Shown here in pieces: positions 4,258 through 53,405 of a stretch of 64,000 bases of DNA. Under the pieces are notes generated by a model that was given only the letters and a program-made list of their open reading frames with translations, did not search any database and was not told the DNA's origin. A program made the translations under genes and the position numbers. This DNA comes from Candidatus Omnitrophota bacterium. Lineage in GTDB: Bacteria; Omnitrophota; Gorgyraeia; Gygaellales; Profunditerraquicolaceae. How positions within the stretch are numbered: the first letter of the stretch is position 1; the number at the start of each line of letters is the position of its first letter. Location: positions 74,244 to 138,243 of the forward strand of contig JALOQK010000001.1 of assembly GCA_025453395.1 (NCBI GenBank), in the 5' to 3' direction.

Positions 4258-4388
4258 AGAATGAGACTTGGGTAATGGGTAGTAAGCTTAAGATGAGGGT
4301 TAGGTTGAAGAATAATTTAAAGATTTTTCCCCACAACCCACCCACACTCTCGACCCACAACCTACATCCCACGACTCACTCTTATCCT
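4258..4388. repeat. Interspersed element family A, copy 1 (G/T-rich arm followed by C/A-rich arm)
   Basis: gggtaatgggtagtaag...gagggttaggttg...ccccacaacccacccacactctcgacccacaacctacatccc; near-copies at 53286-53405 (same orientation) and 5755-5885 (inverted). Confidence 0.7.
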
Positions 4389-4535
4389 AAAAAGTTACCT
4401 TAGCTGATAAAGGCTAACCCCAGCTTCTCTTCTTCAGGTGGCGAAGACGGCGGCGCATCTTTTTTCTTTTATGCGTGCGTATCTTCTGTCTTTTTCTTTT
4501 TCTGCCGCAAGGCATCGTTTACTCCCTTCGATCGT

Positions 4536-4712
4536 AAAACTAAAAATTAAAAAGTAAAAGCGCAAAACTATAATTTAAAACTAAAAATTAAGAAAAATGC
4601 ATAAAAAACAAAAGATAAAAGTGTAAAAGATTGTATTAACGTTTTTAGTTTCGTTTTTTTAGTTTTAAATTTTAAGCTGTAGTTTTTAATTTTGCGCTTT
4701 ACGCTTTACATT
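4536..4712. repeat. Heptamer-built AT-rich palindromic element, family B copy 1
   Basis: Left arm aaaagtaaaagcgcaaaactataatttaaaactaaaaatt mirrors right arm agtttttaattttgcgctttacgctttac; abuts the hisG stop. Confidence 0.7.
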
Positions 4713-4713
4713 T

Positions 4714-5595
4714 CTAATATATGACTTTGTTCAACGGATACTCTATAATCCCTGTAGCTCCGGCTCTTTTTAATTCCGGAATAAGCGTGCGCACAACCTT
4801 CTCGTCTATAATTGTTTCCACAGCCACCCATCCGTCTTCTGAAAGGCTGGACACTGTAGGCTTTTTTAACGCGGGCAAAACAGCAAGGATCTTTTTTATG
4901 TCATTTTTCCTTACGTTCATCTTCAGGCCCACCTTAGATTCGGCAGCAATAGCTCCTTGAAGTAAAACCGCGATTTCCTCCATCTTTTGCCTTTTCCATG
5001 GGTCTTTATACGCCTTCTTATTGGCAATAAACTGCGTGGTGGATTCGCAAATCGTATCAATTATCGCCAGCTTATTGGCCTTCAAGCTTCTTCCGGTTTC
5101 AGTCAATTCCACAATCGCATCTACCAGGCCGGAACTTACCTTTACTTCAGTAGCGCCCCAGCTAAACTCCACATCCACATTGATCTTGTTTTTCTTAAAA
5201 TACTGCTTTGTCACATTAACCAATTCTGTGGCAATGCGCTTGCCGCTTAAATCTTTTGCCGATTTAAAACCCGACGCCTCCGGAACAGCCAAAACCCACC
5301 TAACCTTGCTTAAACTCTGTTTAGCGTAAACTAAGTCCGTAACCCGGACGACATCTGAAGCATTTTCCAATATCCAGTCATTGCCGGTAATCCCGCAGTC
5401 AAGCGCCCCGTCAGCGACATAACGCGACATCTCCTGCGCGCGTAAAAGCACCGGCTCTATCTGTCCATCGTCAATAGAAGGAAAATAAGACCTCTCCGAG
5501 GGCAGATTTACATTAAACCCTGCCTTGCGGAACATCTTGAAAGTCGCCTCCTGGAGGCTGCCCTTTGGTAAACCTAATTTCAGAATTTTATCCAT
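4714..5595 (-). CDS. hisG: ATP phosphoribosyltransferase, long form
   Basis: 293 aa with the HisG catalytic region ([18 protein letters not shown]) plus a C-terminal regulatory domain. Confidence 0.8.
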
Positions 5596-5754
5596 AGTAA
5601 TTTAAGCCTTTTGTTAAGTTTTACACTCGCAAAGGCTGTATTATACCTTCCGGATAAGTTTTTGTAAAGAAAATTTACCTGTTTTTATTTACAAAATGTC
5701 CCCTTTGCCTTATAATAGGAGAACACTACTTAAAATGAAATTAAACCTAAATTA

Positions 5755-5885
5755 AGTCATCCGAGAATGAGCCGTGAGTTGTGAGCCGTGAGTTTGGGGC
5801 TAGAGTGAGTTGGGAGGAATTTATATTTAAACTCATCCTTATCCTCATCCCAAACCCAATACCCATTACCCATTTCTCATCCTTA
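5755..5885. repeat. Family A element, copy 2 (inverted relative to copies 1 and 3)
   Basis: gagtgagttgggagg...cccaaacccaatacccattacccatttctcat is the reverse complement of the A1/A3 arms; sits in the divergent hisG/ppiD-like promoter region. Confidence 0.65.
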
Positions 5886-5926
5886 TAAATCAAAGAATTT
5901 ACAATTATTTTATGGAGAAAATATAA

Positions 5927-7357
5927 ATGCTCAAATTCCTTCGCGACCGCAAAAATTCAAAAAAGATCTGGATATTCTTGGCCATTGTCATAGTGATCCC
6001 CTTTGCTTTCTGGGGGGCAGGATCAGTTGTTTCTGATAAAAACTACGCCGGCTACGTTGGCACTATCTGCGGAAGAAAAATCACAAGCTCGCAATTTCAG
6101 GATTCTTATAACGCCACAGCCGCCAGGCTGCGCCTGCAATTCCCGGATCAATTCGATCAATTAAAAGACTCCCTGGACCTTGAATCCCAGGCCTGGGAGA
6201 GGCTGGTACTTATCAGCGAAGCCAAAAGGCGCAATATCAAGGTAACAGATCAAGAAGTTATAAAAGATATAACCGCCAACCCCACTTTTCAAGGGAAAAA
6301 CGGCTTTGATGATTCCGCCTACAAACATATTATAAAATATTACCTGCACAGCTCACCACGGGCATTTGAAGAACAGACCCGGGAAAGTTTAATGCTTGCC
6401 AAATTATATGATCAGGTCACCTGCGTTGTAAAATTAGACGACGAGCAATTAAAAGAAGAATACCGCAAAGCCAACGAAGAATTAAGCATCTCTTACATAA
6501 GCGCGCAATACGCAGAGCTTGAAAAGAATATCCAGGCCGATGATGAAACTTTAAAATCATACTTTCAAAACAACTCCATAAAATTCAAAGAGCCGCTGTC
6601 CTTTAATTTAGAATACGTCAAAATAGAGGCCGAGGAAAAAACAAGCCTTAAACAGAGAAGCGAAAAGATATTCCTTCTGGCGCAAAAAAATATCCCTTTA
6701 AAGAAAATAGCCCAGGAAAATAAACTTACCCTTAAGGAAACCGGCCTGTTCCCGGAAACCGGCCCCATCCCGGAAATTGGATGGGCAAAGCAGATAATCA
6801 ACGCGCTGCCTAAAATAAAGCCTGACGAATACCTGCCCCCTTACTGTAATCAACAGGCCTGTTTTTTAGCGAAAATAAAAGTAAAAATGGACCCCTATAT
6901 ACCGGAGTTTACAACCATCAAGGATAAAATAAAAATCATCTTTTCCAGAGAAAAAGCCAAAGAACAAGCTAAAGAAAGAATTGAAAAATGCCTGGCGCGC
7001 CTTAAGGAACAGCCGGATTCAGATATTTTTGAAACAACTGCCGTGGAAAACGGGCTAAAATACGCCTCCACTTCCTTTTTTAAATTCGCCAGCTACATCG
7101 AAGGCATTGGCTCATCCTCTGAATTCTGGTTAACAGCAGAAAAATTACAACCAAACAAGGCCAGCGAAATTATCTCTACCCCCACAGCGTTATTTATTAT
7201 CCGTTTAAAAGAAAAAAAGGAAGCGGATTGGAATAAATTTGAAGAAGATAAGAAAACATTCTCGGAAAAAATACTTTCCGATAAAAAAAATGAATACTTT
7301 ACCTCTTTCTTAAAAGAACTTGATAAAAAGGCCTTTTTTAAAACAAGCCAAAGCTAA
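5927..7357 (+). CDS. Periplasmic chaperone, PpiD/SurA-N-domain-like, membrane-anchored
   Basis: N-terminal signal-anchor (IWIFLAIVIVIPFAFWG), then a SurA-N-like helical region; length and organisation resemble PpiD. No clear parvulin catalytic motif seen. Confidence 0.5.
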   Translation: MLKFLRDRKNSKKIWIFLAIVIVIPFAFWGAGSVVSDKNYAGYVGTICGRKITSSQFQDSYNATAARLRLQFPDQFDQLKDSLDLESQAWERLVLISEAKRRNIKVTDQEVIKDITANPTFQGKNGFDDSAYKHIIKYYLHSSPRAFEEQTRESLMLAKLYDQVTCVVKLDDEQLKEEYRKANEELSISYISAQYAELEKNIQADDETLKSYFQNNSIKFKEPLSFNLEYVKIEAEEKTSLKQRSEKIFLLAQKNIPLKKIAQENKLTLKETGLFPETGPIPEIGWAKQIINALPKIKPDEYLPPYCNQQACFLAKIKVKMDPYIPEFTTIKDKIKIIFSREKAKEQAKERIEKCLARLKEQPDSDIFETTAVENGLKYASTSFFKFASYIEGIGSSSEFWLTAEKLQPNKASEIISTPTALFIIRLKEKKEADWNKFEEDKKTFSEKILSDKKNEYFTSFLKELDKKAFFKTSQS

Positions 7358-7368
7358 ATAAGCATAAA

Positions 7369-7911
7369 TTGCCTGTTGCCATGAATAAACTAAAGAAATC
7401 CTTAGCCAACAAAGGTATGGCCCTGGCAGAAGTGCTGGTAGCGGCATTTCTTTTAAGTGGCGCCTTTGCCGGAACAATCGCCTTTATCTCGCAATACCTG
7501 CGCGGTCTTGAACACTCCCAAAATATGACCTTGGCAATTAATGCCGCCCAGCAAAGAATTGAATCTATCTTGGGCCGCGTCAACCCCACAGCTCCAGATA
7601 CGGTAGAAGACTTTTTCAGCGATACGATAAGCGACTACACTAATAACCCTACCTTTAACGTCTATGACTCTACCGGATCCGCCATGCCAAATTTTAAAGG
7701 CACAACTTATATAAGCAGTCAAAACATCAATGACCTTACCTTTTACAGGATAAAAGCTGTGGTTTGCTGGGAGCAAGCAGGAGGGATACTTATCGGAGAA
7801 GATAAGAATTTAAACGGAGTGCTTGATTCAGGCGAAGATAAAGCCGGCGGAACAGCCAACGAACTTGATTCTCCGGTGAGCATTATTATAAATATAACTA
7901 ATATAGACTAA
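7369..7911 (+). CDS. Type IV minor pilin / pseudopilin (prepilin-type N-terminal cleavage/methylation domain)
   Basis: Leader MNKLKKSLANKG | MALAEVLVAAFLL has G(-1) and E(+5) followed by a hydrophobic helix. Confidence 0.75.
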   Translation: MPVAMNKLKKSLANKGMALAEVLVAAFLLSGAFAGTIAFISQYLRGLEHSQNMTLAINAAQQRIESILGRVNPTAPDTVEDFFSDTISDYTNNPTFNVYDSTGSAMPNFKGTTYISSQNINDLTFYRIKAVVCWEQAGGILIGEDKNLNGVLDSGEDKAGGTANELDSPVSIIINITNID

Positions 7912-7912
7912 A

Positions 7913-8554: not shown

Positions 8555-8637
8555 AGATGTAAATCAATTGTAAAAACTTATCATTCAGCATAGTGTTGCT
8601 TTAAAATACAGGCTATACTGTTTATTGGAGTAAAAAT

Positions 8638-11577: not shown

Positions 11578-11580
11578 AAA

Positions 11581-11660
11581 AATAAAGGGGACGGTTCAAA
11601 ATAAAGGGGACGGTTCAAAATAAAGGGGACGGTTCTATTAAATAGAGCCGTCCCCATATT
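11581..11660. terminator. Bidirectional rho-independent terminator with triplicated 19-bp left arm
   Basis: (aataaaggggacggttcaa)x3 then ttaaa tagagccgtcccc; hairpin GGGGACGGTTCTA/TAGAGCCGTCCCC flanked by an A-run upstream and T-run downstream. Lies between convergent genes. Confidence 0.7.
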
Positions 11661-11677
11661 TTTGTTTTTACCTGTTT

Positions 11678-11860: not shown

Positions 11861-11960
11861 TTCTTCTTAACCTCCCCTTTTCAGTTTTCAGCTTTCAGTC
11901 TTCAGCTTTCAGCCGTCAGCAAAAGCTTTAAGCTAATAGCTGACAGCTGATGGCTGATAC
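11861..11960. repeat. Heptad-repeat palindrome (TTCAGCT x5 ... GCTGACAGCTGATGGCTGA), family F
   Basis: ttcagtt ttcagct ttcagtc ttcagct ttcagcc gtcagc | loop | gctgacagctgatggctga; a related element lies at 47305-47351. Confidence 0.65.
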
Positions 11961-21235: not shown

Positions 21236-21350
21236 CATCTTTTTTATCTTTTTATTTTGGTTATTGGACATTGGTGTTTGATTATTATTTGGTTATTTAA
21301 CATTTGGTTATTGGTTATTTACTACTTTTACCTTTTTGCTTTATTTATTA
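21236..21350. repeat. 'ttggttatt'-rich element (family G, single arm)
   Basis: ttttggttattggacattggtgtttgattattatttggttatttaacatttggttattggttattt; resembles the arms of the palindrome at 33050-33240. Confidence 0.6.
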
Positions 21351-22083: not shown

Positions 22084-22127
22084 AGCGTTTAATTATACAG
22101 CCTCAAATTAAAAAACCAAACATATTT

Positions 22128-22236
22128 CTTAGCTAAAAAATTAAAGCGTAAAGCTAAAAACTACAGTGCAAAATTAAAAATTTTTAATTTTGAATTATGG
22201 TTTTTAGTTTTACGCTTTTAGCTTTACGCTTTTTGC
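22128..22236. repeat. Family B heptamer palindrome, copy 2
   Basis: aaagcgtaaagctaaaaactacag...ggtttttagttttacgcttttagctttacgcttt. Confidence 0.7.
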
Positions 22237-22240
22237 CTCT

Positions 22241-22453
22241 TTATCTACTGCGGCGTATGGCAGCTAAACTTATTTTTCTTTTTGTTTCGGCGGAATGGTG
22301 CTTTCCGTACATGGGGTTATTTTTGCCTTTAGTAGCTTGTGATATTTTAGCCAGGGAAGATTTCTTGTGGCGCTTTCCGTACATGGAATTACTCTTTCCT
22401 CTTTGCGCTAAACTGATCTTGCGCTTTGTCGCCTCTGACTGCTTTCTCTTCAT
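22241..22453 (-). CDS. Standalone NUMOD3-repeat DNA-binding mini-protein (70 aa), homing-endonuclease remnant-like
   Basis: Three tandem NUMOD3-type motifs: SEATKRKISLAQRGK..., KSSLAKISQATKGKNNPMYGK, SAETKRKISLAAIRRS. No nuclease domain in frame upstream. Confidence 0.65.
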   Translation of the reverse strand: MKRKQSEATKRKISLAQRGKSNSMYGKRHKKSSLAKISQATKGKNNPMYGKHHSAETKRKISLAAIRRSR

Positions 22454-22580
22454 ATGCCCTCCATTTGTTTATATTATACCCCAATCCAGTCAAAATCTCA
22501 ATCTTAAATTTTGCCAAAAAGGCTAACACCCGCGCAATACAAGTTAAGCGCGGGTGCCGGAACAAAACAACAATATCTAT

Positions 22581-22600
22581 TTAGCTAAAGCGTCTACAAA
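22581..22600. repeat. 20-bp direct repeat TTAGCTAAAGCGTCTACAAA (left boundary of 2-kb cassette)
   Basis: Identical 20-mer recurs at 24615-24634. Confidence 0.8.
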
Positions 22601-22603
22601 CTA

Positions 22604-23002
22604 TTAACTAACCTCAACGCCATGTTTTCGCTTAAATTCTTCTTTCACTTTGGGAAAAATCAGGAAAGATAATTTATAATAAGGTTTAATAAATAAGGAA
22701 TTTAACAACTGCGGGATTTCGCTTTCTGGTGTTACAGGCTCAAAGAAATATTCCTTGGCCTGCTCAACAGTTAAAAAAGGCTTCCAAAGAAGCATTCCAA
22801 CACCCATACCTAAAAATGTAAAAATATAAAGCATTGTTCCAGTTAATGGCAGGACTGCGCAAAAAATTATAAAACGGCTTGGTTTTGGCCCGAATATAAA
22901 TGCTAAAAAACAAATTGAGGCTATTATGCCTACGAAAATAACAAACATCATTACCAGAAAAGCTATAAAATTAACCAACTGTTTAAATTTTTCTTTGTTC
23001 AT
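22604..23002 (-). CDS. Small membrane protein, unknown function (132 aa)
   Basis: Three predicted TM helices; lies inside the direct-repeat-bounded cassette. Confidence 0.5.
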   Translation of the reverse strand: MNKEKFKQLVNFIAFLVMMFVIFVGIIASICFLAFIFGPKPSRFIIFCAVLPLTGTMLYIFTFLGMGVGMLLWKPFLTVEQAKEYFFEPVTPESEIPQLLNSLFIKPYYKLSFLIFPKVKEEFKRKHGVEVS

Positions 23003-23030
23003 AGTTATTTTCTGTCGGCCTTGCCTTTTC

Positions 23031-23582
23031 TTACTTGAATGATTTTAAGGTAAAGGCCCCTATTAAACCTAATCCAAAACATATTGGCACAGTATAAGCA
23101 GCCATCTTAGCAAGCGCCTTCATGGATTCACGAAATGAAACTTCCTTGGTGCCTTGGGCTTCCTTATTAAATACTTTTCTGGCTGGCGGGATACACCAAG
23201 CCAAAAGATTTGCTACTATCATCCCCAACGCCAGAGAAGAAAAAATAAGAGGCACCATAAGAAGAAAACTTGAAATAAAGCTTTCGGCGGACATCTTCCC
23301 TCTCCAGAATTGCGAAAACTTACCGGCATGTTCCGGGAATATCAGGATATGAATATTCCATAGTATTTTGAATTGAAAAACCCAACTAAACCATACACCC
23401 AACACAGTAAACGGTATTAAAATCAAATTCCACGGACTTTTTCTACGGCCGGCTCTTGCAGTAGCTTCGGTCAGATATTCCCCACCGGATTTAGTCTTGG
23501 AAGCTATATGCAAAATAACCCAGATAAGAATTATGCTAACAGCTGGAACAAGTAAACTAGATAAGATTTCTCTTTTCATCAT
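23031..23582 (-). CDS. Membrane protein, unknown function (183 aa)
   Basis: Four to five hydrophobic helices; lies inside the cassette. Confidence 0.5.
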   Translation of the reverse strand: MMKREILSSLLVPAVSIILIWVILHIASKTKSGGEYLTEATARAGRRKSPWNLILIPFTVLGVWFSWVFQFKILWNIHILIFPEHAGKFSQFWRGKMSAESFISSFLLMVPLIFSSLALGMIVANLLAWCIPPARKVFNKEAQGTKEVSFRESMKALAKMAAYTVPICFGLGLIGAFTLKSFK

Positions 23583-23696
23583 ATTTATTATATCGCTGTC
23601 AAATCAAAATCTCAATTATAATTTTCGACCGGTCACAAATTGTGACCAGTTCATCTATTTCAGCTTTTGCCACCTCCCTGCCCAGAAAGGGCACAT

Positions 23697-23724
23697 TTGC
23701 GCCTGCCTGCCGGCAGGCAGGCAA
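23697..23724. repeat. 28-bp perfect palindrome TTGCGCCTGCCTGCCGGCAGGCAGGCAA (family C)
   Basis: Exact dyad symmetry. The same 22-bp core is at 46663-46684, with variants at 33170-33191 and 24655-24690. Confidence 0.85.
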
Positions 23725-23786
23725 TTCCGATAAGCACAAGGTATCTACCTTATTAGACGAGGGAGATTGTTAAATCTTACAAAAAT

Positions 23787-23826
23787 AAAAAGGACGGTTA
23801 TTTTTAATAGAACCGTCCCTTTATTT
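23787..23826. terminator. Bidirectional terminator hairpin GGACGGTT...AACCGTCC, downstream of brnA
   Basis: aaaaaggacggttatttttaatagaaccgtccctttattt; A-run upstream, T-run downstream. Confidence 0.7.
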
Positions 23827-23836
23827 GCTTATTTGC

Positions 23837-24088
23837 TTATCTTACCCCTTGCGCCACCTGATGCAGGATTTCGGAAATAAAAGTTTGGTATTTAACGCCC
23901 AATTGCCTTGCTTTTTGCTTAATATGTTCCAGATCATAGCTATTCACCCGGATATTCAACACCGCGTCTTTCTTTCTGGCTTCAAGCATCCGCGCGATTC
24001 TATCGTATTCCTCTTTACCCGCAGGCACAAACTCTTCAAAATGATCTTCAATCCATTGCTCCTCTTTGGTTAATTTTATCTTTCTCAT
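23837..24088 (-). CDS. brnA: BrnA-family antitoxin (ribbon-helix-helix)
   Basis: 83 aa; LNIRVNSYDLEHIKQKARQLGVKYQTFISEILHQ matches the BrnA C-terminal RHH pattern. 4-bp overlap with the upstream toxin gene. Confidence 0.75.
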   Translation of the reverse strand: MRKIKLTKEEQWIEDHFEEFVPAGKEEYDRIARMLEARKKDAVLNIRVNSYDLEHIKQKARQLGVKYQTFISEILHQVAQGVR

Positions 24089-24345
24089 ATAATCACCTCT
24101 TTCTTATAAATTTTCTTGTATTTACGACACGGATATAATGTTTTTAAGAAAATACCTTCTGCGTCAGCAACAAATGGCGCCGCCCAAACATACCCATTAT
24201 GTTCATATATCAAAATCCCTTGATTGTTCCTGCTTGGATGTTGCAGGACATCTAAAAACTTTGCTTTGACTATTTCTTCGAATGAAACGCCACGTATGCG
24301 TTTTAATCTTGCACTTTTTGTTACATTCCATCTGATTGCCTCCAT
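24085..24345 (-). CDS. brnT: BrnT-family toxin (DUF497 RNase)
   Basis: 86 aa; W..K...N..KHGVSFEE-like N-terminus (RWNVTKSARLKRIRGVSFEEIVKAKF); toxin-first gene order typical of BrnTA. Confidence 0.75.
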   Translation of the reverse strand: MEAIRWNVTKSARLKRIRGVSFEEIVKAKFLDVLQHPSRNNQGILIYEHNGYVWAAPFVADAEGIFLKTLYPCRKYKKIYKKEVII

Positions 24346-24442
24346 AAAATTGTCGTGCCGCTTGTTGTATATACAATTGTATTATAAAGAGACCTCCTTG
24401 TCAAATTCTTTTATTTCCACGGCACCTACCCCCTTTCATCCA

Positions 24443-24585
24443 TATTAGACGAAGGAGGTTGCTGAATCTTACACAAAAAGTGTAGGCCAGCTTATCCTAT
24501 AAAGCTGGGCCTTACAAAAAAGTCACAAGGTCACAAAAAAAGGACGGCTCATTTTAATGAGGCCGCCCTTTATCCTGCCCTTAAT
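24443..24585. repeat. Second copy of the ~80-bp 'ttagacgaRggaG...aaaggacgg...ccgtccctttat' element (with insertions); first copy at 23745-23830
   Basis: catattagacgaaggaggttgctgaatcttaca...aaaaaaaggacggctcattttaatgaggccgcccttta aligns with ccttattagacgagggagattgttaaatcttaca...aaaaaggacggttatttttaatagaaccgtcccttta. Confidence 0.65.
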
Positions 24586-24614
24586 TGTTTTGTAATTTAT
24601 TGGAAGACTAGAGG

Positions 24615-24634
24615 TTAGCTAAAGCGTCTACAAA
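24615..24634. repeat. 20-bp direct repeat TTAGCTAAAGCGTCTACAAA (right boundary of cassette)
   Basis: Identical to 22581-22600. Confidence 0.8.
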
Positions 24635-24811
24635 TAATGAATTTTAAATTGTGGTTTTGCCTGCCTGTCTGCCGTAGGCAGACCTACCGGCAGGTAGGCG
24701 TTTTTCGCTTTTAGCTTTACGCTAACTAAGCTCTACCCGAGCTAGTGACAATCTGTCCTGCTTCGCCATTTAACTAACAAAATATGGTATGGCTTCGCAG
24801 AGACTGCGCCA

Positions 24812-28310: not shown

Positions 28311-29816
28311 TTATAGACTCTCGATTTTATTCAATGCGTTGATATATGCCCTTACTGAAGATTCAATAATATCCGTACTTGCCCCTCTGGAAGTAACTAC
28401 CCTGCCCTTGGCTTTTAGTTTCAAGCTTACTTCGCCAAGCGCGTCTTTTCCTTGAGTGACCGCTTCAATGCGGTAATCCTGAAGTTCACCTTTAATGCCA
28501 GTAGCTTTATCAATGGCCTTAAAGCAGGCATCTACCGGGCCATCTCCTGTGGAAGAAGCGCTTAATTTTTTATTTTTGTAGATCATTGTTACTTCGGCTT
28601 TGGGCGCGATCTTGGTGCCGGAATGAATTTGAAAACCAACAAGCTTCCATACCGGCTTTATGGACTTTATTTCATCTTCCACAAGAGAAACCAAATCATC
28701 ATCAAAGATATTTTTCTTTTTATCGGCTAATTCCTTGAAGCGAAAGTTTACTTTCTCCAACTGCTCTTGGCTTAGAGACACCCCCAGGTCTTTCAGGCGC
28801 TCTGCCAAGGCATGCCTTCCGGAATGTTTGCCCAAAACTATTCCTGTTCCGGTAAACCCCACATCCTCAGGCAAAATAATTTCATAGGTAGAGCGCTCTT
28901 TCAATACCCCGTCTTGATGAATACCGGATTCATGGCGAAAGGCATTTCCTCCCACAATTGCTTTATTCGGAGCAACTACAAATCCTGTAAGTTTACTCAC
29001 CAATCGCGATACTCTATATATCTGATTACAGGCGATATTAGTTTTAACATCCTTAAATATATCCTGGCGGGTTTTGATATTCATTACGATCTCTTCCATA
29101 GAAGCATTGCCCGCGCGCTCGCCAATACCGTTTATAGTGCACTCAACCTGGCGCGCTCCGCTTTTAATTGCTTCCAGGGAATTTGCTACCGCCATACCCA
29201 GATCGTTATGGCAGTGCGTTGAGATAATCGCCTTATTAATATTCGGGACATTGTTCTTGATACTGCGGATCAAATCACCGTATTCTTCAGGCTGGGTGTA
29301 ACCTACGGTATCCGGGATATTTACCGTTGTTGCTCCGGCATTGATTACCGCTTCCAATACCTTAAAGATAAATGCGCGCTCGCTTCTTGAGGCGTCTTCC
29401 GGAGAAAATTCCACATCCGGGCAAAACTTCTTAGCGTATTTTACGCTTTCTACTGCCAAGCGCAAAATCTGATCTTCGGCTTTCTTCAATTTATACTGCA
29501 TGTGGATCTTGGAAGTCGCCAAAAATACATGGATTCGCCCGCGTTTAGCCGGCTTGATCCCGCAAGCGGCCGCGTCAATATCAGCTTTTATTGCCCGCGC
29601 CAAAGCGCAGACAACCGGCCCCTTAATCTCTTTGGCAATTTTTTTAACAGACTGCAAATCTCCGGGGCTGGAGATAGGGAAACCGGCCTCAATAACATCA
29701 ACGCCCATACTGGCTAAAGCATGGGCGATTTCCATCTTTTCAGCAGGGTTAAGGCTTGCCCCCGGCGCCTGCTCCCCGTCGCGAAGTGTAGTATCAAATA
29801 TAATTAGGTTATCCAT
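28311..29816 (-). CDS. leuA: 2-isopropylmalate synthase (or citramalate synthase) LeuA/CimA family
   Basis: IFDTTLRDGEQ start region, HCHNDLGMAVANS motif, C-terminal LeuA dimerisation/regulatory domain. Start placed at MDNLIIFDTT; the longer ORF extends to 29864. Confidence 0.8.
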   Translation of the reverse strand: MDNLIIFDTTLRDGEQAPGASLNPAEKMEIAHALASMGVDVIEAGFPISSPGDLQSVKKIAKEIKGPVVCALARAIKADIDAAACGIKPAKRGRIHVFLATSKIHMQYKLKKAEDQILRLAVESVKYAKKFCPDVEFSPEDASRSERAFIFKVLEAVINAGATTVNIPDTVGYTQPEEYGDLIRSIKNNVPNINKAIISTHCHNDLGMAVANSLEAIKSGARQVECTINGIGERAGNASMEEIVMNIKTRQDIFKDVKTNIACNQIYRVSRLVSKLTGFVVAPNKAIVGGNAFRHESGIHQDGVLKERSTYEIILPEDVGFTGTGIVLGKHSGRHALAERLKDLGVSLSQEQLEKVNFRFKELADKKKNIFDDDLVSLVEDEIKSIKPVWKLVGFQIHSGTKIAPKAEVTMIYKNKKLSASSTGDGPVDACFKAIDKATGIKGELQDYRIEAVTQGKDALGEVSLKLKAKGRVVTSRGASTDIIESSVRAYINALNKIESL

Positions 29817-29825
29817 AATATTTAA

Positions 29826-29912
29826 CTTAAAATTTAAAGCGTAAAGCGTAAAACCATAATTCAAAATTCAAAGTTTTTAGTTTTACGTTTTTCGCTTTAC
29901 GTTTTACGCTTT
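29826..29912. repeat. Family B heptamer palindrome, copy 3
   Basis: aaagcgtaaagcgtaaaaccataattcaaaattcaaagtttttagttttacgtttttcgctttacgttttacgctttc; overlaps the ilvC stop codon. Confidence 0.75.
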
Positions 29913-30899
29913 CTTCATCCAGGGCATCATCTCACGCAGCTGCTTACCCACCTTCTCTATCAAGTGATTATCCCCTGCGGCAATAAGCTTATTGAAATTG
30001 GGGCGGCCTTGTTCATTTTCCTTGATCCATTCCTTGGCAAATTCCCCAGACTGGATTTCTTTTAATATTTTTTCCATTTCCTTGCGCGTTTCTTTGGTAA
30101 TAACTCTTGTGCCGCGGGTTAAATCTCCGTAACAGGCGGTATTAGAAACGCCACGGCGCATCCCGGAAATCCCTCTTTCCTGAATTAAGTCCGTAATAAG
30201 TTTTAACTCATGCAATACTTCAAAATAAGCGATTTCCGGTTGATAGCCTGCGGCAACCAAAGTATCAAACCCGGCCATGATCAATTCGCTTGCCCCGCCG
30301 CATAAAACCGCTTGCTCTCCAAATAGGTCAGTTTCTGTTTCTTCTTTGAAATCCGTCTGGATAACCCCTGCTTTTGTGGCCTTAAGCGCCTTGGCATAGG
30401 CTAAAGCCAGGTCAAGCGCCTTGCCGGTTGCGTTCTGATAAACTGCTACCAACGACGGCACCCCCTTGTCCTCTTCATACATTTTTCTTACCAAAGCTCC
30501 CGGGCCTTTGGGAGCAACCATAAAGACATCCACATCCTTAGGCGGGACTATTTGTTTAAAATGAATATTAAACCCGTGCGAAAAACAAAGCGCCTTGCCG
30601 GCTTTTAAATTCGGCTCAATAGATTCTTTGTAAACTTTTGCCTGCACGTGGTCTTGGGTTAATATCTGGATAATATCCGCCTGCTTGGCTGCTTCCGCGG
30701 CACTTACCGGATCAAACCCATCTTTTTTGGCTTGCTCGTAGTTAGGCGTGCCGGAGGTTTCTGACACAACCACGCTTACCCCTGAATCACGCAAACACAA
30801 AGACTGTCCTCTTCCCTGTATGCCATATCCGATAATCGCGACTTTTTTATTTTTTAATAAATCCAAATTTGCGTCTTTCTCGTAATAAACCTTAATCAT
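29904..30899 (-). CDS. ilvC: Ketol-acid reductoisomerase
   Basis: [17 protein letters not shown] Rossmann region and class I KARI length (331 aa). Confidence 0.9.
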
Positions 30900-33044: not shown

Positions 33045-33049
33045 AATCC

Positions 33050-33240
33050 ACCTCTAATCAATAACCAAACACCAAATTACAATAACCAAATAATCATCAA
33101 ACACCAATTACCAATACCCAAACCTGTTTGGTCCATTGGTTATTGATTATTGGATATTGTTTGATATTTGCCTGCCTGCCGGTAGGCAGGAAATTTGGTT
33201 ATTGATTATTAACATTTAGTTATTGTAATATTGCTCCTTT
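33050..33240. repeat. ~190-bp 'aaccaaa/ttggtt' palindromic element (family G) containing the family C near-palindrome CCTGCCTGCCGGTAGGCAGG at 33170-33191
   Basis: Left arm aataaccaaacaccaaattacaataaccaaataatcatcaaacaccaattaccaata mirrors right arm cattggttattgattattggatattgtttgata...tttggttattgattatt. Confidence 0.7.
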
Positions 33241-34892: not shown

Positions 34893-35028
34893 GTTAGCGT
34901 AAAGCGTAAAACGAAAAGTGTAAGACTATAATTTAAAATTCAAAAATTTTAAATTTTGCGCTATAGTTTTACATTTTACGCTTTTCGCTTCTGTTTTTCG
35001 CTTTTCGCTTTTCGCTTTTCGCTTTCTA
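34893..35028. repeat. Family B heptamer palindrome, copy 4, with (TTTTCGC)x6 tandem run
   Basis: gttagcgtaaagcgtaaaacgaaaagtg...gttttacattttacgcttttcgcttctgtttttcgcttttcgcttttcgcttttcgctttc. Confidence 0.75.
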
Positions 35029-36351
35029 GTCCGCGCCTTCTCCATCATGCACCACCTGCGAATCTTCTTTGGCTTTGCGCACAATGACCCTTTTTAAGGT
35101 TATATATTTATCTACCTCGGGCTTGGTATTTCCCACATTAAGCTGTTTGAATAAAAATTCAAATTTGGCTTCAATGTCGGAAGTGATCTTATCGCGGGTT
35201 TCTTTTGGTAGCCCCATAATCTGCTTCTTAAACGGCCCCAGGGCTTTTTTACGCGCCTTATAGAAAAACTGATCATCGCTTTCGCCTTCTTTTCTTTCGT
35301 TGGCGGCATTTACCTTAAGCCATTCGTAAATCTTATTCTTCAATTCCATGGGAAAATGCGCGCTGTCAAACATCATGTTCTGAAAACCGGTGGCCAAATG
35401 CACTTCGGCTGTTGTAACTTCAGGGAATTTATGGAATGCTTCGTCAGGAAGAGTAGATGCCCCGTGCTGCACCGCTCCTGCTAATCCATAATCCTTGCGC
35501 GCGATCTCAGAAATAACTCTTAATGCTTCAAAATCAAGCTTTACTTCCGCTACTCTTCCGTCGGGAAGCACTACCCCTCCGTGAGAAGTCCCGGTTTGGA
35601 TGCTTATCTTGCTAATCCCGGCTCTTCCTTTTCTTAGGCGCTGGGTGAACCCCTGCATAAAAGCGTGAAAATCTTCAGGAGTAGAATTCTTATGCCCCAC
35701 CTCTCCAATCTCTCCGCCCACAGAAACCTCAACCCCTCTGGGTTGTATTTGACGAATAAATTGGGTCAATTTCGCGCAAACTTCATAATTATTAAATTGC
35801 TGCTTCTTCAGGTCCTCTTTGGACAGATCCACCAATGTAGAGGAATCTATATCTATATTGTAAAACCCTGCGTCAATGGCATCCTGAATAAGCGCCTTTA
35901 AGGCGTCTAATTCCTTATCCGGGTTTTCCTGGAATTTCTTTAAATTTACCTGGGTGTGGTCAGCCTGAATAAACACCGGGCCGGTGTAATCTTCTTTTAC
36001 CGCCGCAGCTAAAATTACCGCCGAGAATTCCGCGGGTATCTGATTGGTATAGCCCATTTCAGATTTGGCAATCTCAAAAATAAACGCCCCGGCGTTATTT
36101 CTCTTGGCAACTCTGAATAACGCGCGCGCCAGATCATAGGTCATACTGCGCAAATTTATCGCCGGGACAGTAAAACCTTTGACTTCGCCTTTACCCATAG
36201 CCATATATAACTCATGGATACTTGAAGGATACACTCCTTTTTTATAGGCGATATCCACTATTTTCTTAGCTAAAATCTTTTTCACTGTCACATCGTCATT
36301 CATAATTAAGTCCATGGCGATGTTTTCAATATCAAGCGGCCTTCTTCCCAT
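35026..36351 (-). CDS. fba: Class II fructose-bisphosphate aldolase family protein (long form)
   Basis: 441 aa; TVPAINL and HGG-containing class II aldolase motifs; gene directly downstream of pfkA. Confidence 0.65.
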   Translation of the reverse strand: MGRRPLDIENIAMDLIMNDDVTVKKILAKKIVDIAYKKGVYPSSIHELYMAMGKGEVKGFTVPAINLRSMTYDLARALFRVAKRNNAGAFIFEIAKSEMGYTNQIPAEFSAVILAAAVKEDYTGPVFIQADHTQVNLKKFQENPDKELDALKALIQDAIDAGFYNIDIDSSTLVDLSKEDLKKQQFNNYEVCAKLTQFIRQIQPRGVEVSVGGEIGEVGHKNSTPEDFHAFMQGFTQRLRKGRAGISKISIQTGTSHGGVVLPDGRVAEVKLDFEALRVISEIARKDYGLAGAVQHGASTLPDEAFHKFPEVTTAEVHLATGFQNMMFDSAHFPMELKNKIYEWLKVNAANERKEGESDDQFFYKARKKALGPFKKQIMGLPKETRDKITSDIEAKFEFLFKQLNVGNTKPEVDKYITLKRVIVRKAKEDSQVVHDGEGAD

Positions 36352-46520: not shown

Positions 46521-46656
46521 AGTGAATGAACACCGGCCCATCCGATAGGGCCGGGTGTTAGCAGTAGTGAACACCGGCCCATCCGATAGGGCCGGGTGTT
46601 AGCAGTAGTGAACACCGGCCCATCCGATAGGGCCGGGTGTTAGCAGTAGTGAACAC
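46521..46656. repeat. Tandem array, 3 copies of a 41-bp unit each forming hairpin AACACCGGCCC-ATCCGATA-GGGCCGGGTGTT, directly upstream of ptsN
   Basis: Units begin at about 46521, 46566 and 46607 (plus a partial at 46648). Unit agtgaacaccggcccatccgatagggccgggtgttagcagt. Confidence 0.85.
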
Positions 46657-46662
46657 TCCGCG

Positions 46663-46684
46663 CCTGCCTGCCGGCAGGCAGGCA
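46663..46684. repeat. Family C 22-bp perfect palindrome GCCTGCCTGCCGGCAGGCAGGC
   Basis: Identical core to 23701-23722. Confidence 0.85.
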
Positions 46685-46830
46685 ATACATAATAAGCGCC
46701 GGGTGTAGGTATTATGTATAAAGAAACTATTCCTACTCCTCGCCTAATCGCTCTCAAATTTTTAGTGCTGCGCACCAAAAATTTGCTTCGCAGGCTTCGG
46801 AGTGAAATTTTTACTGCGTAAAAATTTCTA

Positions 46831-46903
46831 AGCGGGAGACGGGGTTCGAACCCGCGACATCGACCTTGGCAAGGTCGCGCTCTACCAACTGAGCCACTCC
46901 CGC
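46831..46903 (-). tRNA. tRNA-Gly (anticodon GCC)
   Basis: Revcomp GCGGGAGTGGCTCAGTTGGTAGAGCGCGACCTTGCCAAGGTCGATGTCGCGGGTTCGAACCCCGTCTCCCGCT; anticodon loop TTGCCAA. Confidence 0.9.
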
Positions 46904-47118
46904 GTCGCTCACTTTAGGTGGTTCAATATTATCAAGTAAACTAACAATACTTATTGACGTATCTATTACTAATCTAGCGTTCGCTGGACGTTCGCTCCCC
47001 ATGGGAAAACCAAAGGTTTCCCCTCTGGCGTCGCTTGAGTGACATATCTAAAACTATATGCCCGCTCCTGTCACCCCTTCCTTTTGTCCTATCGATACTT
47101 TCAAAAAACTTTAGTTAA

Positions 47119-47200
47119 TGGGCGGAAGAGGAGTTGAACCTCCAAGGGTTGCCCCATCGGCTCCTAAGGCCGACGCGTATGCCAATTCCGCCATCCGCCC
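47119..47200 (-). tRNA. tRNA-Leu (anticodon UAG), type II with long variable arm
   Basis: Revcomp GGGCGGATGGCGGAATTGGCATACGCGTCGGCCTTAGGAGCCGATGGGGCAACCCTTGGAGGTTCAACTCCTCTTCCGCCCA; anticodon loop CTTAGGA. Confidence 0.85.
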
Positions 47201-47231
47201 GTCGAGGGCTTTGTAACTTTATTTAAATTTA

Positions 47232-47304
47232 TGAGCCTCCCGCGGCTCGAACGCGGCACACCCACCTTAAAAGGGTGGTGCTCTACCAGATGAGCTAGAG
47301 GCCC
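47232..47304 (-). tRNA. tRNA-Lys (anticodon UUU)
   Basis: Revcomp GGGCCTCTAGCTCATCTGGTAGAGCACCACCCTTTTAAGGTGGGTGTGCCGCGTTCGAGCCGCGGGAGGCTCA; anticodon loop CTTTTAA. Confidence 0.85.
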
Positions 47305-47351
47305 AAAATCAGCTATCAGCCGTCAGCTTACAGCTTACAGCTTACAGCTGA
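47305..47351. repeat. Family F heptad-repeat palindrome (ATCAGCTATCAGCCGTCAGC (TTACAGC)x3 TGATT), downstream of frr
   Basis: Shares the TCAGCYNTCAGCYGTCAGC motif with 11895-11955; the outer AATCAGCT/AGCTGATT arms pair. Confidence 0.65.
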
Positions 47352-47912
47352 TTAGATTTCCAAAACTTCTTTTTCTTTATACTTTAATAATTCTTCAACT
47401 TTAGCGGTATATTTATCCGCCGTCTTCTGCAATTCATCTATACCGCGGAATTTATCATCTTCAGAAATAGCCTTGTCTTTTTCAAGCTTCTCTATCGCCT
47501 CTTTGGCGTCGCGGCGGATAGTACGCATAGAAACCCTGCCGTTTTCCGCCATCTGATGCACAACCTTAACCAACTCCTGCCTTCTATCTTTTGACAAAGG
47601 CGGAATAGAAAGCCGGATAATTTTCCCGTCATTAGAAGGAGTAACCCCAAGGCTTGATTTCATAATCGCTTTTTCTATCTCAACAATCGCGGTTATATCC
47701 CAGGGCTGTATGGTGATAAGATGCGCGTCAGAGGCAGAAATAGAAGCCAACTGCTTTAAAAGTGTAGGGGTACCGTAATAATCCACATGCAAACCCTCAA
47801 CCAGCCCCGGATGCGCCCTGCCGGTTCTTACTTCAGAATATTCGCGCGAAACAGATTCTACCGCCTTCTTCATTTTATCTTCTGCGTTATGCAAAACTTC
47901 TTTGATAGTCAT
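47352..47912 (-). CDS. frr: Ribosome recycling factor
   Basis: 186 aa; conserved RRF sequence (VRTGRAHPGLVE, IRRDA). Confidence 0.9.
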   Translation of the reverse strand: MTIKEVLHNAEDKMKKAVESVSREYSEVRTGRAHPGLVEGLHVDYYGTPTLLKQLASISASDAHLITIQPWDITAIVEIEKAIMKSSLGVTPSNDGKIIRLSIPPLSKDRRQELVKVVHQMAENGRVSMRTIRRDAKEAIEKLEKDKAISEDDKFRGIDELQKTADKYTAKVEELLKYKEKEVLEI

Positions 47913-49208: not shown

Positions 49209-49234
49209 TTTACTTTTAGTGCCTTTCTTATTTA

Positions 49235-50107: not shown

Positions 50108-50319
50108 AGCCTGTTTTGTTTCATGCTTTTTAAAGCATTACGCACATGCTTATATTAAAGCCGGAAAACAAGCTATTTTTGCTTTGGTTGCGCGCCTCTT
50201 GATACCTGTGCGTTAATGGCGCTAACCGTGATTTTTACACTGTTTTTCCAAATTAAACGCCAAATATATCACAATTAAACCGCCAATGCAACAAAAAAGA
50301 TGACTTTTTTGAAGGATTA

Positions 50320-52116
50320 TTAAGACAGGCCTAATTCCTGCAACTGGTAGAGTTTGCGGTATATCCCTTTTTTCTCCAAAAGCTCTTGATGGTTTCCTTC
50401 TTCGGCAATTCTTCCTTCGCTTAAAACAATGATCCGGTGGGCGTTCTTAACTGTGGAAAGCCGGTGCGCCACCACAAAAACGGTTCGTCCCTGTATCAGC
50501 TTATCTAAGGCCTGCTGGACAAGCCTTTCAGATTCCGAATCAAGCTGAGAAGTAGCTTCATCAAGGATAAGTATGGGCGGATTTTTCAAAAGCGCACGGG
50601 CTATAGCAATACGCTGCCTCTCTCCTCCGGAAAGCTTAGCGCCCCTGTCGCCGATAAGAGTCTGATATCCTAAACAGGAATTTAAAATAAAATCATGGGC
50701 GCAGGCCTTTTTAGCGGCTTCCTCTATCTGTTCCTGCGAAGCGTTATCTGTTCCGTAAGAAATATTCGCCTGTATAGTATCATTAAAAAGCACCGTCTCC
50801 TGACTGACAATACCGATGTGCGAACGTAATGATTTTAAGGTAAAATCACTTATGTCGTTACCATCAATTATTATCCTCCCCCTTTGCGGATCGTAAAAAC
50901 GCGGGATCAAGTCTATAAAAGTAGTCTTGCCTGTGCCGCTGGGGCCGACAATAGCGATAATCTCCCCCTTATTTACCTTTATATTGATACCTTTAAGGAT
51001 ATCTTTGTCCGCGTACCTGAACCAGACATCTTCAAAAGCTATATAGTTTTTAAACCCGGTAAGAACTCCGGCATGGGGTTTTTCTACGACAGTAGGGACC
51101 ATATCCAAAATCTCATAGATCCTCTCGCTTGCGGCTTGCGCCTGCTGCATAATGGAGCTTACCTGGCTTAATTTCTTAAAGGGGCGGATCATGGATAAAA
51201 GCGCTGCCATAAACAAAGTAAACGTCCCGAATGAAATCTCTCCGCTTACCACCTGTTTCCCGCTGTAATAAATGATCACCAGCGCCACAAAGACCCCGAT
51301 TAGCTCTGTAGCGATACCAAGCAGTAATGTGCGCTTAATGGATTTCATAGCCAAACGGTAATACTGAAAATTCTGCTGCGTGAAACGGGCGATCTCGCGG
51401 GCTTGGGCATTAAAGGCCTTGACGACTTTTATACCGGTAAAAGTCTCCACAAGAGTAGAATTTATATCGGCAGATTTTTCCTGCGAGCGTTTGCTTAATT
51501 TTCTTAAAACCTTTCCCACAGATACCATCGGCCAGGCGATCATCGGCAAGATCACTAAAGAAAGAAACGCCAGCCTCCAATTGATGAAAAATATGAGGAT
51601 CGCGAAAGATATTACCTCAAAAGACTGATAAACCAAATCCGTAAGCGCGTAAGATACCGCGTTTTCAATAAGTTTTACGTCATTGGTAATGCGCGATATT
51701 AGCTCCCCGCTTCTTTTTTGGGTAAAATAGTCTAAGGATAAATCCTGCAGTTTCTCGTAGACCTTATTGCGCACGTCACGGATGACCTTTTGCCCCACAT
51801 CAGACATAATATAGCTTTGCGCGAACTCAAAAACCGCCCTTAAGATTAAAGCTATGGGCATAACAATAAGGATAAGGCTTAAGACCTTTAACGGGGGCAG
51901 GCTGTTTAATTGAACAAGGATCTTCTCTAAGAAAAACGGCAGCTTACCATTCGGGAAAACAATCTGTTTGTTGGTAAAAATACGGTCGATCAAAGGCACT
52001 ATCGCGCTTAGGCGGAAAACATCAAAAAAAGTGACCACCCCCATCAATAATCCGGAAATAACCAGAAGATGGGTATAGGCTTTGGAGAAACTGAATAGCT
52101 TGCGGTAATTTTTCAT
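50320..52116 (-). CDS. msbA: ABC exporter, fused permease/ATPase, MsbA-like (lipid A/lipid flippase family)
   Basis: Six-TM domain followed by Walker A GPSGTGKTT, LSGGERQRIAIARAL signature and Walker B ILILDEATS. Divergent from lpxB. Confidence 0.75.
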   Translation of the reverse strand: MKNYRKLFSFSKAYTHLLVISGLLMGVVTFFDVFRLSAIVPLIDRIFTNKQIVFPNGKLPFFLEKILVQLNSLPPLKVLSLILIVMPIALILRAVFEFAQSYIMSDVGQKVIRDVRNKVYEKLQDLSLDYFTQKRSGELISRITNDVKLIENAVSYALTDLVYQSFEVISFAILIFFINWRLAFLSLVILPMIAWPMVSVGKVLRKLSKRSQEKSADINSTLVETFTGIKVVKAFNAQAREIARFTQQNFQYYRLAMKSIKRTLLLGIATELIGVFVALVIIYYSGKQVVSGEISFGTFTLFMAALLSMIRPFKKLSQVSSIMQQAQAASERIYEILDMVPTVVEKPHAGVLTGFKNYIAFEDVWFRYADKDILKGINIKVNKGEIIAIVGPSGTGKTTFIDLIPRFYDPQRGRIIIDGNDISDFTLKSLRSHIGIVSQETVLFNDTIQANISYGTDNASQEQIEEAAKKACAHDFILNSCLGYQTLIGDRGAKLSGGERQRIAIARALLKNPPILILDEATSQLDSESERLVQQALDKLIQGRTVFVVAHRLSTVKNAHRIIVLSEGRIAEEGNHQELLEKKGIYRKLYQLQELGLS

Positions 52117-52177
52117 AACGATGATGATATCATACTAATTGACTTTTGTCGAGGCGTTTGCTATCATTTTTGTTAAT

Positions 52178-53296
52178 ATGGAAAATTTAAAACATATCTT
52201 TATTATCTGCGGAGAGGCATCCGGAGACCTGCACGCCTCTAACTTGGCAGCTGAACTAAAGAAAATAGACCCCTCTATTAAAATATCGGGTGCGGGAGGA
52301 GCTTTATTAGAAAACACCGGGGCAAACCTCTATGCCAACATCAAAGACTTCGCGGTAATGGGGCTATTTGATGTCTTGAAAAAATTACCTCAATTTTTTG
52401 CCCTCAAAAAACTCTTAATTGAGAAAATCCGCTCGGAAGCCCCTGACGCGCTTGTTTTAATTGACTTCTCCGGATTTAACTTACGCTTAGCAAAGGCAGT
52501 AAATAAATCCCTGCCGGTAATTTATTACATCAGCCCCCAGGTCTGGGCGTCAAGGCCGGGGAGGATTCAAACCATCAAGAAATATATTGATAAAATGATC
52601 GTTATCTATGAATTTGAAAAAAAATTCTATGCCAAACACGGTATTGACGCCCAATACGTAGGAAATCCTCTCTTAGATATTGTTAAAGTCCAGCAAATAA
52701 AACAAAATAATCCGATTGTGGCCCTCTTGCCCGGCTCACGCAAACAGGAAATAACATATATTCTTCCGGTAATGCTTGAAACATCCAGGCTTATTAAAGA
52801 AAAAATACCCGATGCCAGCTTCCTTATTGCCAAGCCGGTAAATCTGGATGAATCTATTTATACAGAAGCAATCAATAAATATAAACTGGATGTGCAGATA
52901 ATTTCCGGGAAAACTTATGATTGTATTAACGCGGCGAGTTTCTGCTTGGTTGCCTCTGGCACTGCCACCCTTGAAACCGCAATACTTGAAAAGCCGTTTG
53001 TTGCTATTTATAAAATGAGCTTATTAAATTATCTTTTTTACCGGCCACAGGTAAAGATTCCTTTTATCTGCATAGTCAATATTATTGCCGGCAAGAAAAT
53101 AATCCCCGAATTCATCCAATTCCATGCCAAGGCAAAAAAAATAGCCGGTGAAGTTGTTAAAACCTTGACCGACCATCAATATTACCGCCAGATCAAAGAA
53201 AATCTTGTTTCCTTTAAAGCGCTTCTTGGAAAAACAGGCGCCTCGCAGCGCGCCGCAGAGATTATTTTGAATACTGTCAGAATGGGAAATGAGTAA
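52178..53296 (+). CDS. lpxB: Lipid-A-disaccharide synthase
   Basis: IFIICGEASGDLHASNLAAELKK N-terminus typical of LpxB (GT19). Start placed at MENLKH; the longer ORF starts at 52139. Confidence 0.85.
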   Translation: MENLKHIFIICGEASGDLHASNLAAELKKIDPSIKISGAGGALLENTGANLYANIKDFAVMGLFDVLKKLPQFFALKKLLIEKIRSEAPDALVLIDFSGFNLRLAKAVNKSLPVIYYISPQVWASRPGRIQTIKKYIDKMIVIYEFEKKFYAKHGIDAQYVGNPLLDIVKVQQIKQNNPIVALLPGSRKQEITYILPVMLETSRLIKEKIPDASFLIAKPVNLDESIYTEAINKYKLDVQIISGKTYDCINAASFCLVASGTATLETAILEKPFVAIYKMSLLNYLFYRPQVKIPFICIVNIIAGKKIIPEFIQFHAKAKKIAGEVVKTLTDHQYYRQIKENLVSFKALLGKTGASQRAAEIILNTVRMGNE

Positions 53297-53405
53297 TGGG
53301 TAGTGGGTCCAAGGTGAGAATTGGGTTGAGTAAAAAACTTTAGAATTTTCCCCACAACTCACCCCCACTGTTTACCCACAACTCATGTCTAACAACTCAC
53401 CCTCA
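53286..53405. repeat. Family A element, copy 3 (overlaps last codons of lpxB)
   Basis: gagtaatgggtagtgggtccaaggtgagaattgggttgag...ttttccccacaactcacccccactgtttacccacaactcatgtctaacaactcaccc. Confidence 0.7.

Follow-up and report, generated by a model that had tools for sequence, protein, structure and literature searches.

The enterobacterial ERIC/IRU element is an imperfect palindrome of ~127 bp that occupies transcribed intergenic sites in either orientation, is non-coding, and exists as moderately diverged copies whose numbers are known; it is not known to have a heptamer substructure or strand-skewed arms. REP and REPIN elements consist of two inverted halves, each an imperfect palindrome of ~20-40 nt, that form a hairpin of ~100 nt; they are extragenic, dispersed, and non-autonomous, and they are reportedly mobilised by RAYT transposases. 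Bacterial MITEs (miniature inverted-repeat transposable elements; Correia/NEMIS, RUP, BOX, and Nezha) are short and non-coding, carry terminal inverted repeats, insert at gene boundaries, are sometimes fused to the 3' ends of genes, and are absent from orthologous sites. Inverted pairs of G-rich heptamers have been described as GGGAATC in Xanthomonas and as GGGGA(C/T)T in Nostoc (Rehm et al., 2015; PMC4692102). The Xanthomonas case comprises ~70 inverted pairs of such arrays, their function is unknown, and polymerase slippage was proposed for the preference for 7 nt (PMC4692102). Heptamer repeats also include STRR of Calothrix/Anabaena and TAACTGA of Beggiatoaceae, cyanobacteria, and Bacteroidetes (MacGregor, 2015; PMC4679880), the latter being present in a Beggiatoa genome as 169 direct sets vs 1 indirect set (PMC4679880). 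The subject of the present analysis is family A, an element of ~130 bp with three copies (c1, c2, and c3) in a 64,000-nucleotide stretch from the genome of an uncultured Candidatus Omnitrophota bacterium (GenBank assembly GCA_025453395.1, contig JALOQK010000001.1, positions 74,244 to 138,243), hereafter the window. On balance, we favor the reading that family A is a low-copy, diverged, lineage-specific, non-coding palindromic repeat of the REP/ERIC/MITE kind, composed of two convergent G-rich heptamer arrays, that would act at most as a passive stem-loop; all of the rival explanations weighed below have less support.

A hidden Markov model (HMM) built from c1, c2, and c3 and run with nhmmer recovered the copies, which span 4249..4392 on the plus strand (140 bits; HMM placement 4249-4390), 5756..5892 on the minus strand (129 bits; HMM placement 5761-5892), and 53277..53409 on the plus strand (132 bits). 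A repeat finder recovered c1 in its family D6 and c2 in its inverted pairs I7 and I14. The two programs together bear out the earlier note on this DNA, which had reported three copies at about these places. The DNA of this genome that was covered amounts to ~69 kb, i.e., the 64-kb window plus 0.6 kb and 4.8 kb beyond it; no new copy was found in this additional DNA, and half-element HMMs found no solo arms. Because each copy scores ~130 bits in its native orientation and only 31-37 bits when reversed (for c2, 129 bits on the minus strand vs 31 bits on the plus strand), the middle copy is truly inverted, as had been claimed. The repeat finder pairs 4258-4385 with 53279-53406 without gaps at 73% identity, and pairs each of these two segments with 5820-5892 as inverted copies. 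When the three copies are aligned, as the earlier note had suggested, pairwise identity is 65-71%, mean column identity is 75% (MAFFT alignment), and one register only is found: c1 matches c3 at 73%, ungapped over 128 nt, at register 0, vs ≤44% at shifts from -21 to +21, ±7 and ±14 included. The likeness of c1 and c3 extends to the non-periodic loop or middle segment (70% identity) and to the flanks, the variant heptamer units follow one order common to all three copies, and two core motifs occur five times and three times vs chance expectations of 0.03 and 0.09. Since the alignment holds in a single register, it reflects homology to one ancestral sequence and not a shared composition or periodicity, and, judging from this alignment, c1, c2, and c3 are descendants of one common ancestral sequence.

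The arms of family A are strongly strand-skewed and loosely complementary, as first noticed, with 0-5% C in the left arms and 3-13% G in the right arms of all copies. The internal periodicity, which had been given as 8 nt, is in fact 7 nt; in the pooled autocorrelation, lag 7 stands out (z = +5.2) and there is a deficit at lag 8 (z = -3.2). In the left arm the top strand carries the units TGGGTAA, TGGGTAG, and TGAGTAA, and in the right arm the bottom strand carries TGAGTTG, GTGAGCC, and TGGGTAA; their consensus is about TGRGTWR, a degenerate G-rich heptamer. Each copy is composed of two convergent heptamer arrays, one on each strand, with an A/T-rich loop of 15-20 nt between them; in c1, the G/T-rich arm spans ~4258-4310, the A/T-rich loop ~4311-4326, and the C/A-rich arm 4327-4390 (plus strand). 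The 5' half is the G-rich arm, whichever strand is read. It is because the arrays converge that the top strand is G/T-rich and then C/A-rich with arms only loosely complementary, and that an imperfect stem-loop of ~50 bp is possible from either strand. All copies are predicted to fold on both strands into a long imperfect hairpin (-33 to -47 kcal/mol, z -2.1 to -4.5); c1 has values of -32.7 (plus strand) and -46.9 kcal/mol (minus strand), and c2 one of -46.5 kcal/mol (z = -4.5). In the consensus structures ~90% of the cells are paired, helix 1 is 95% paired, and base pairing of the termini ...AGAATGAG / CTCATTCT... is common to c1, c2, and c3. Stop codons in all three frames were considered as a feature of the family and rejected, since the c3 core TGAGTAATGGGTAG has TGA, TAA, and TAG and the other two copies do not.

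For comparison we used 80 related Omnitrophota loci around hisG (1.17 Mb), in which HisG is 78-85% identical. Neither whole nor half elements of family A were found in this 1.17 Mb. The gene order ppiD / hisG / 33-aa open reading frame (ORF) / tetratricopeptide repeat (TPR) gene is conserved in the related loci, and the sites orthologous to c1 and c2 are short and empty there. The spacer at the c1 site is <100 nt in 67 of 72 relatives vs 185 nt in the window. At the c2 site, the hisG upstream block CTTTACAA...TATAAT is conserved and the relatives have an equivalent back-to-back promoter pair, the closest ones being compact and without an insert.

The sites of family A are untranslated DNA that is probably transcribed. 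They had all been described as promoter-proximal, a description that applies only to c2, which lies near promoters and downstream of the ppiD one; c1 is intercistronic and c3 lies between convergent stop codons. The c1 copy is flanked by the stop of the 33-aa ORF (4414) and by the TPR gene's start (4228); the two genes are co-directional on the minus strand, and c1 begins 22 nt after the stop codon of the former. This conserved, highly basic 33-aa ORF (MPCGRKRKRQKIRTHKRKKMRRRLRHLKKRSWG; 4414-4515, minus strand, from the ORF list) follows hisG in 75 of the 80 related loci and has no Pfam or NCBIfam match; it looks similar to ribosomal protein bS22, an identity for which these two databases give no support. 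The hisG and ppiD-like genes diverge on either side of c2, and the two best promoter matches of this region (TTTACA, 17 nt, TATAAT; 11 of 12 consensus positions each) stand back-to-back, namely the predicted hisG promoter at 5640..5668 on the minus strand, which points away from c2, and the predicted ppiD promoter, a consensus match only, at 5688..5716 on the plus strand in between. Because c2 is downstream of this predicted ppiD promoter, we infer that it belongs to the 5' untranslated region (5'-UTR) of ppiD, a leader that would be transcribed.

The c3 copy occupies the whole 106-nt gap (53297-53402) between the convergent lpxB (plus strand; stop codon 53294-53296) and L27-like (minus strand; stop codon 53403-53405) genes. 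The overlap with the lpxB stop that the earlier note had recorded is upheld: c3 starts at ~53277-53279 and encodes R-M-G-N-E-stop, i.e., it supplies the last five lpxB codons and the TAA, and its right terminus contains the TGA stop of the L27-like gene. This corrects the annotation at two gene ends, because the LpxB tail and stop as well as the L27-like stop are repeat-derived. The downstream gene had been named rpmA, a name too definite for what is a divergent L27-like gene of 76 aa (53403..53633, minus strand; Pfam Ribosomal_L27 25.5 bits; NCBIfam L27 21 bits vs a cutoff of 90). In homologues of the LpxB of the window (NCBI MCU0665601.1), the conserved core ends ...IILNxL and is followed by short variable tails, and no other homologue among those compared has the RMGNE tail, which in this genome takes the place of the usual end just past that core. 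In one related contig (L104), no spacer follows lpxB, whose stop lies in an overlap with the next gene. This contig and another (L105) have an M48 peptidase gene, absent from the window, between lpxB and the L27-like orthologue (56% identical in L104), so that c3 stands at a junction missing that gene. In L105 (1820-2175) and several other Omnitrophota, a different palindromic element of ~300 nt with terminal repeats GGGACGTCTTTGAATCC is found at the 3' end of lpxB, and its left terminus encodes alternative LpxB tails ('GTSL...'; P0003-5, P0010-11, P0025, P0049, and P0055).

Taken as a dispersed, non-autonomous REP/ERIC/MITE-type repeat, selfish or neutral, family A would have had its arms built through heptamer slippage and inverted duplication, and its copies would have come to their present sites once this lineage had separated from the sequenced relatives. 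The tolerated sites would have been confined to DNA that is non-coding and probably transcribed, namely a spacer between cistrons (c1), a 5'-UTR (c2), and the 3' junction of convergent genes (c3). The role of the element would be at most that of a passive RNA or DNA stem-loop, which may serve as a 3'-end or exonuclease barrier or as a cistron spacer. Several points weigh against such an origin. The family has only three copies in the ~69 kb of genome covered, and these are 29-35% diverged, unlike those of a recently active MITE. No clear target-site duplication was seen at the copies, the flanks showing weak TAAG/TAAA at c1, TCATCC at c2, and none at c3, and no transposase, RAYT, or integrase was found among the ORFs of the window (Pfam was run on nearly all long ORFs, and eight ORFs had no Pfam match). 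Short-read contigs of the same organism read straight through c3, and therefore family A is not a high-identity multicopy repeat. In addition, we infer mobility only from the dispersal of the copies and from empty sites in rather distant relatives (HisG 78-85%; next-closest LpxB 61%). Membership of family A in a MITE, REPIN, or GGGNATC family is not established.

Of the rival explanations, the one that survives best is a selected cis-acting RNA stem-loop kept for its structure, which would stabilise 3' ends, form a terminator-like barrier, or serve as an RNase III/intercistronic processing site, although we consider it unlikely. All copies lie at probably transcribed sites, with c1 just past a stop codon and c3 holding both convergent stops, and c1, c2, and c3 share their orientation relative to the local sense transcript, the strand on which the consensus fold is the more stable (-33.0 vs -22.7 kcal/mol). 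Against this uniformity, the individual fold of c2 prefers the opposite strand; a choice of strand from G-U pairs was accordingly tried and rejected, the consensus favoring the mRNA-sense strand and c2 alone the other. Strong hairpins are also found in the hisG / 33-aa-ORF spacer of relatives, which is expanded from 9-35 nt to 47-276 nt in 27 of 75; these expanded spacers (L015-L094) are unrelated in sequence, many are heptamer-built, and several begin at or within the hisG stop codon (e.g., TAGTTCA and TAGTCTA units). However, the other 48 of the 75 relatives have a spacer without a hairpin, and, since most c1 and c2 sites are empty as well, a hairpin is dispensable. A GT/CA hairpin is retained at an orthologous junction in related contigs of the candidate phyla radiation (CPR), which are described below. 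The covariance analysis that had been proposed earlier gave no support to a conserved structure, with 3 of 35 pairs changed on both sides, a count matched by 291 of 500 shuffles, and no measure above the shuffles for these three sequences. A consensus scan detected no Rho-independent terminator (short G+C stem and U tract) at any copy, though such terminators exist in the window (e.g., 11578-11677).

The wider setting of family A bears on a broader reading. Family A is one of at least four heptamer-built hairpin families in the window. A blind scan returned eight period-7 runs in the window vs none for periods 5, 6, 8, and 9, and all eight are intergenic, overlapping at most a few terminal codons; the 80 related loci gave 28 period-7 runs vs 0-5 for the other periods. 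Among the short periodicities of this genome and of its relatives, arrays of period 7 dominate. Across species, the same junctions (hisG / 33-aa ORF, the lpxB 3' end, and upstream of pth) repeatedly carry inverted period-7 arrays whose sequences are unrelated, and these often start at a stop codon or finish at the next start codon. In a broader scope, family A might be among the products of a process, at work throughout the lineage, that places 7-nt-period hairpins at gene boundaries in Omnitrophota and apparently in some CPR, an idea that we rate as rather unlikely. If true, it would point to a dedicated generator or reader, such as polymerase action or template switching in steps of 7 nt, or an RNA-binding factor for intercistronic 7-nt repeats, the alternative to a dedicated generator being a set of ordinary selfish repeats.

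Family B (arms AAAGCGT on the 5' side and ACGCTTT on the 3' side) has six sites in the window, at 4534-4709, 22123-22230, 29816-29914, 34896-35033, 53661-53768, and 56837-56945. At each site the hairpin accounts for the greater part of the spacer, the neighbouring genes being mostly co-directional on the minus strand, and the copy at 34979-35033 terminates in approximately five tandem CGCTTTT units. Family C is found at 33045-33219 and 21256-21310; in its hairpin a TTGGTTA-type arm comes after a CA-rich one (AACCAAA...), a polarity opposite to that of family A. A solo TTGGTTA array of this family lies upstream of the RmuC-like gene, and its unit resembles the cyanobacterial STRR2 unit. Family D (TTTCAGC/CAGCTAT and then AGCTGAn) is located at 11875-11958 and 47306-47354 of the window. 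In three relatives (L016 18287-18360, L025 18412-18455, and L026 19344-19384), hairpins of this type take up the spacer that precedes pth, the (RNCTGA)n arm ending at the next start codon; this arm recalls the TAACTGA repeats of Beggiatoaceae (PMC4679880).

Three Logan contigs of the same organism (L002, L095, and L098; SRR12684589) are 100% identical to the window, and their ends (window positions 53745, 2442, 33132, and 29904) fall inside family B elements, family C elements, and a T-rich array. The positions of these ends suggest that both families are multicopy and assembly-breaking, and heptamer-type repeats probably break short-read assemblies.

Hairpins of a like kind are found outside Omnitrophota. 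In CPR (Patescibacteria-like) groundwater contigs, a GT/CA heptamer hairpin of ~95 nt with the core GAGTAATGGGTAGTG lies between a 23S_rRNA_IVP-family gene and a TIM-like gene (L007 5087-5183; L106 and L107 1799-1903; L108 1-55), and CPR relatives at 88-90% protein identity carry a hairpin at the same junction with a diverged sequence. A pattern scan of a metagenome collection that did not include the source sample yielded 12 matches, most of them due to chance; L007, L012, L004, and L014 are G-heptamer hairpins of like kind. We do not claim L007 as a homologue of family A, because an HMM of the right arm only gives no match to it. Two viral-contig scans gave no match in one case and four chance matches in the other.

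By itself family A is routine, and the phylum-wide abundance and turnover of heptamer hairpins is the more interesting lead. The abundance of 7-nt hairpins in Omnitrophota appears to be unreported in the literature. These bacteria are very small, partly host-dependent cells with dense genomes, and a sizeable share of their scarce intergenic DNA consists of heptamer hairpins. The over-representation of 7-nt repeats in bacteria is an old question, for which a phylum with many inverted heptamer families turning over at conserved junctions would be a good comparative system.

The G-rich arms could instead modulate transcription or translation as a G-quadruplex/i-motif element of the GGGNATC heptamer type known from Xanthomonas and Nostoc, which we regard as very unlikely. 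The G-tract heptamers (GGGTAAT and GGGTAGT) do stand in convergent arrays on opposite strands like the Xanthomonas inverted pairs (PMC4692102), and the G-rich arm of c2, GGGTAATGGGTATTGGGTTTGGG (5849-5871, minus strand), is a canonical four-tract motif (G3N3-4) in a G-tract scan. It is, however, the sole one of the family, since four or more uninterrupted G3 tracts with short loops are found only in c2 and the tracts of c1 and c3 are broken or 8-15 nt apart. The pattern (GGGN4)x3 is not enriched, with one occurrence observed in the window (c2) vs 0.2 expected and four in the 1.17 Mb from relatives, and the heptamers of the sister families (AAAGCGT, TTGGTTA, and CAGCTAT) are unable to form a quadruplex.

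Independent growth in place, in which per-locus polymerase slippage would have produced each copy and the likeness would be convergence on a favored heptamer, has in its favor that heptamer arrays are abundant and differ among species at the same junction, and that slippage favoring 7-nt units was proposed earlier (PMC4692102). Such growth leaves unexplained the single ungapped register of c1 and c3, from which identity collapses even at shifts of one or two units, the likeness of the non-periodic loop and flanks, and the common order of variant units; judged by the register test, an independent origin in place is largely refuted, and we hold it to be highly improbable. Hardly credible, finally, is an sRNA (small RNA) gene, which the earlier note had suggested, a promoter/operator element, or a short protein-coding ORF, for, although c1 and c2 are crossed in one common frame (WVMG...) by ORFs of 53 and 48 aa and c2 is in a divergent promoter region, stop codons close this frame in c3, a profile search of 5.8 billion proteins with peptides translated from the element gave no family and a lone match (E = 1.7) that falls in another heptamer array, none of the copies is equipped with both a promoter and a terminator of its own, only tRNAs reach the Rfam gathering score in the window (best near the copies E = 1.6), c3 is between gene ends and c1 between co-directional genes, and the sRNA proposal finds as little support in the covariation counts or in the 80 relatives, from which the family is absent.

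The window contains further repeats. At 46527-46656 a 41-nt unit, TGAACACCGGCCCATCCGATAGGGCCGGGTGTTAGCAGTAG, is repeated three times in perfect tandem; every repeat contains a G+C hairpin, and the array adjoins a cluster of three tRNA genes (46831-47304). The G+C-rich palindrome GCCTGCCTGCCGGCAGGCAGGC occurs in four copies (23699-23725, 24676-24702, 33168-33194, and 46660-46686), two of which are identical over 27 nt. Hairpins that resemble canonical terminators (GGGGACGGTTC...GAGCCGTCCCC and then T-rich) are located at 11578-11677, 23787-23821, and 24537-24571; in the first of them the left half-arm is triplicated as a 19-nt tandem repeat. The region ~22100-24800 is a small island, unusually repeat-dense, of ORFs without a Pfam match together with a CopG-family antitoxin gene, and the rest of the window carries housekeeping genes.

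Compared with the systems introduced at the outset, family A shares with bacterial MITEs the terminal inverted repeats and the presence or absence at orthologous sites. It differs from them in lacking many near-identical copies and a related insertion sequence (three copies at 65-71% in ~69 kb, and no transposase family in the window), in being palindromic and 7-nt periodic throughout and not only at the termini, and in having no recognisable target-site duplication. ERIC/IRU, from a different phylum, is alike in size and location, in its lack of coding capacity, and in the moderate divergence of its copies. In contrast to the halves of REP/REPIN elements, the arms of family A are not self-palindromes, because an arm with 0-5% C (left) or 3-13% G (right) cannot pair with itself; moreover, the copy number is apparently low and the divergence high, and no RAYT/Y1 is present among the annotated ORFs of the 64-kb window. 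STRR and TAACTGA repeats are similar to family A in being intergenic 7-nt units by start and stop codons and in being lineage-specific, whereas they mostly form direct arrays and family A and its sister families in the window form inverted pairs. The G-heptamers of Xanthomonas and Nostoc are the closest described system, sharing with family A the period of 7 nt, units that begin with a G tract, intergenic positions near gene ends, and convergent arrays on opposite strands as inverted pairs. Their defining GGGAATC/GGGGAYT unit is replaced in family A by GGGTAAT, GGGTAGT, and GGGTATT, and the units of family A are degenerate (TGRGTWR) and not perfect tandem copies as in GGGAATC arrays. Unlike the independent simple-sequence-repeat loci of these bacteria, the copies of family A are dispersed representatives of one ~130-bp sequence with a fixed unit order and a common loop.

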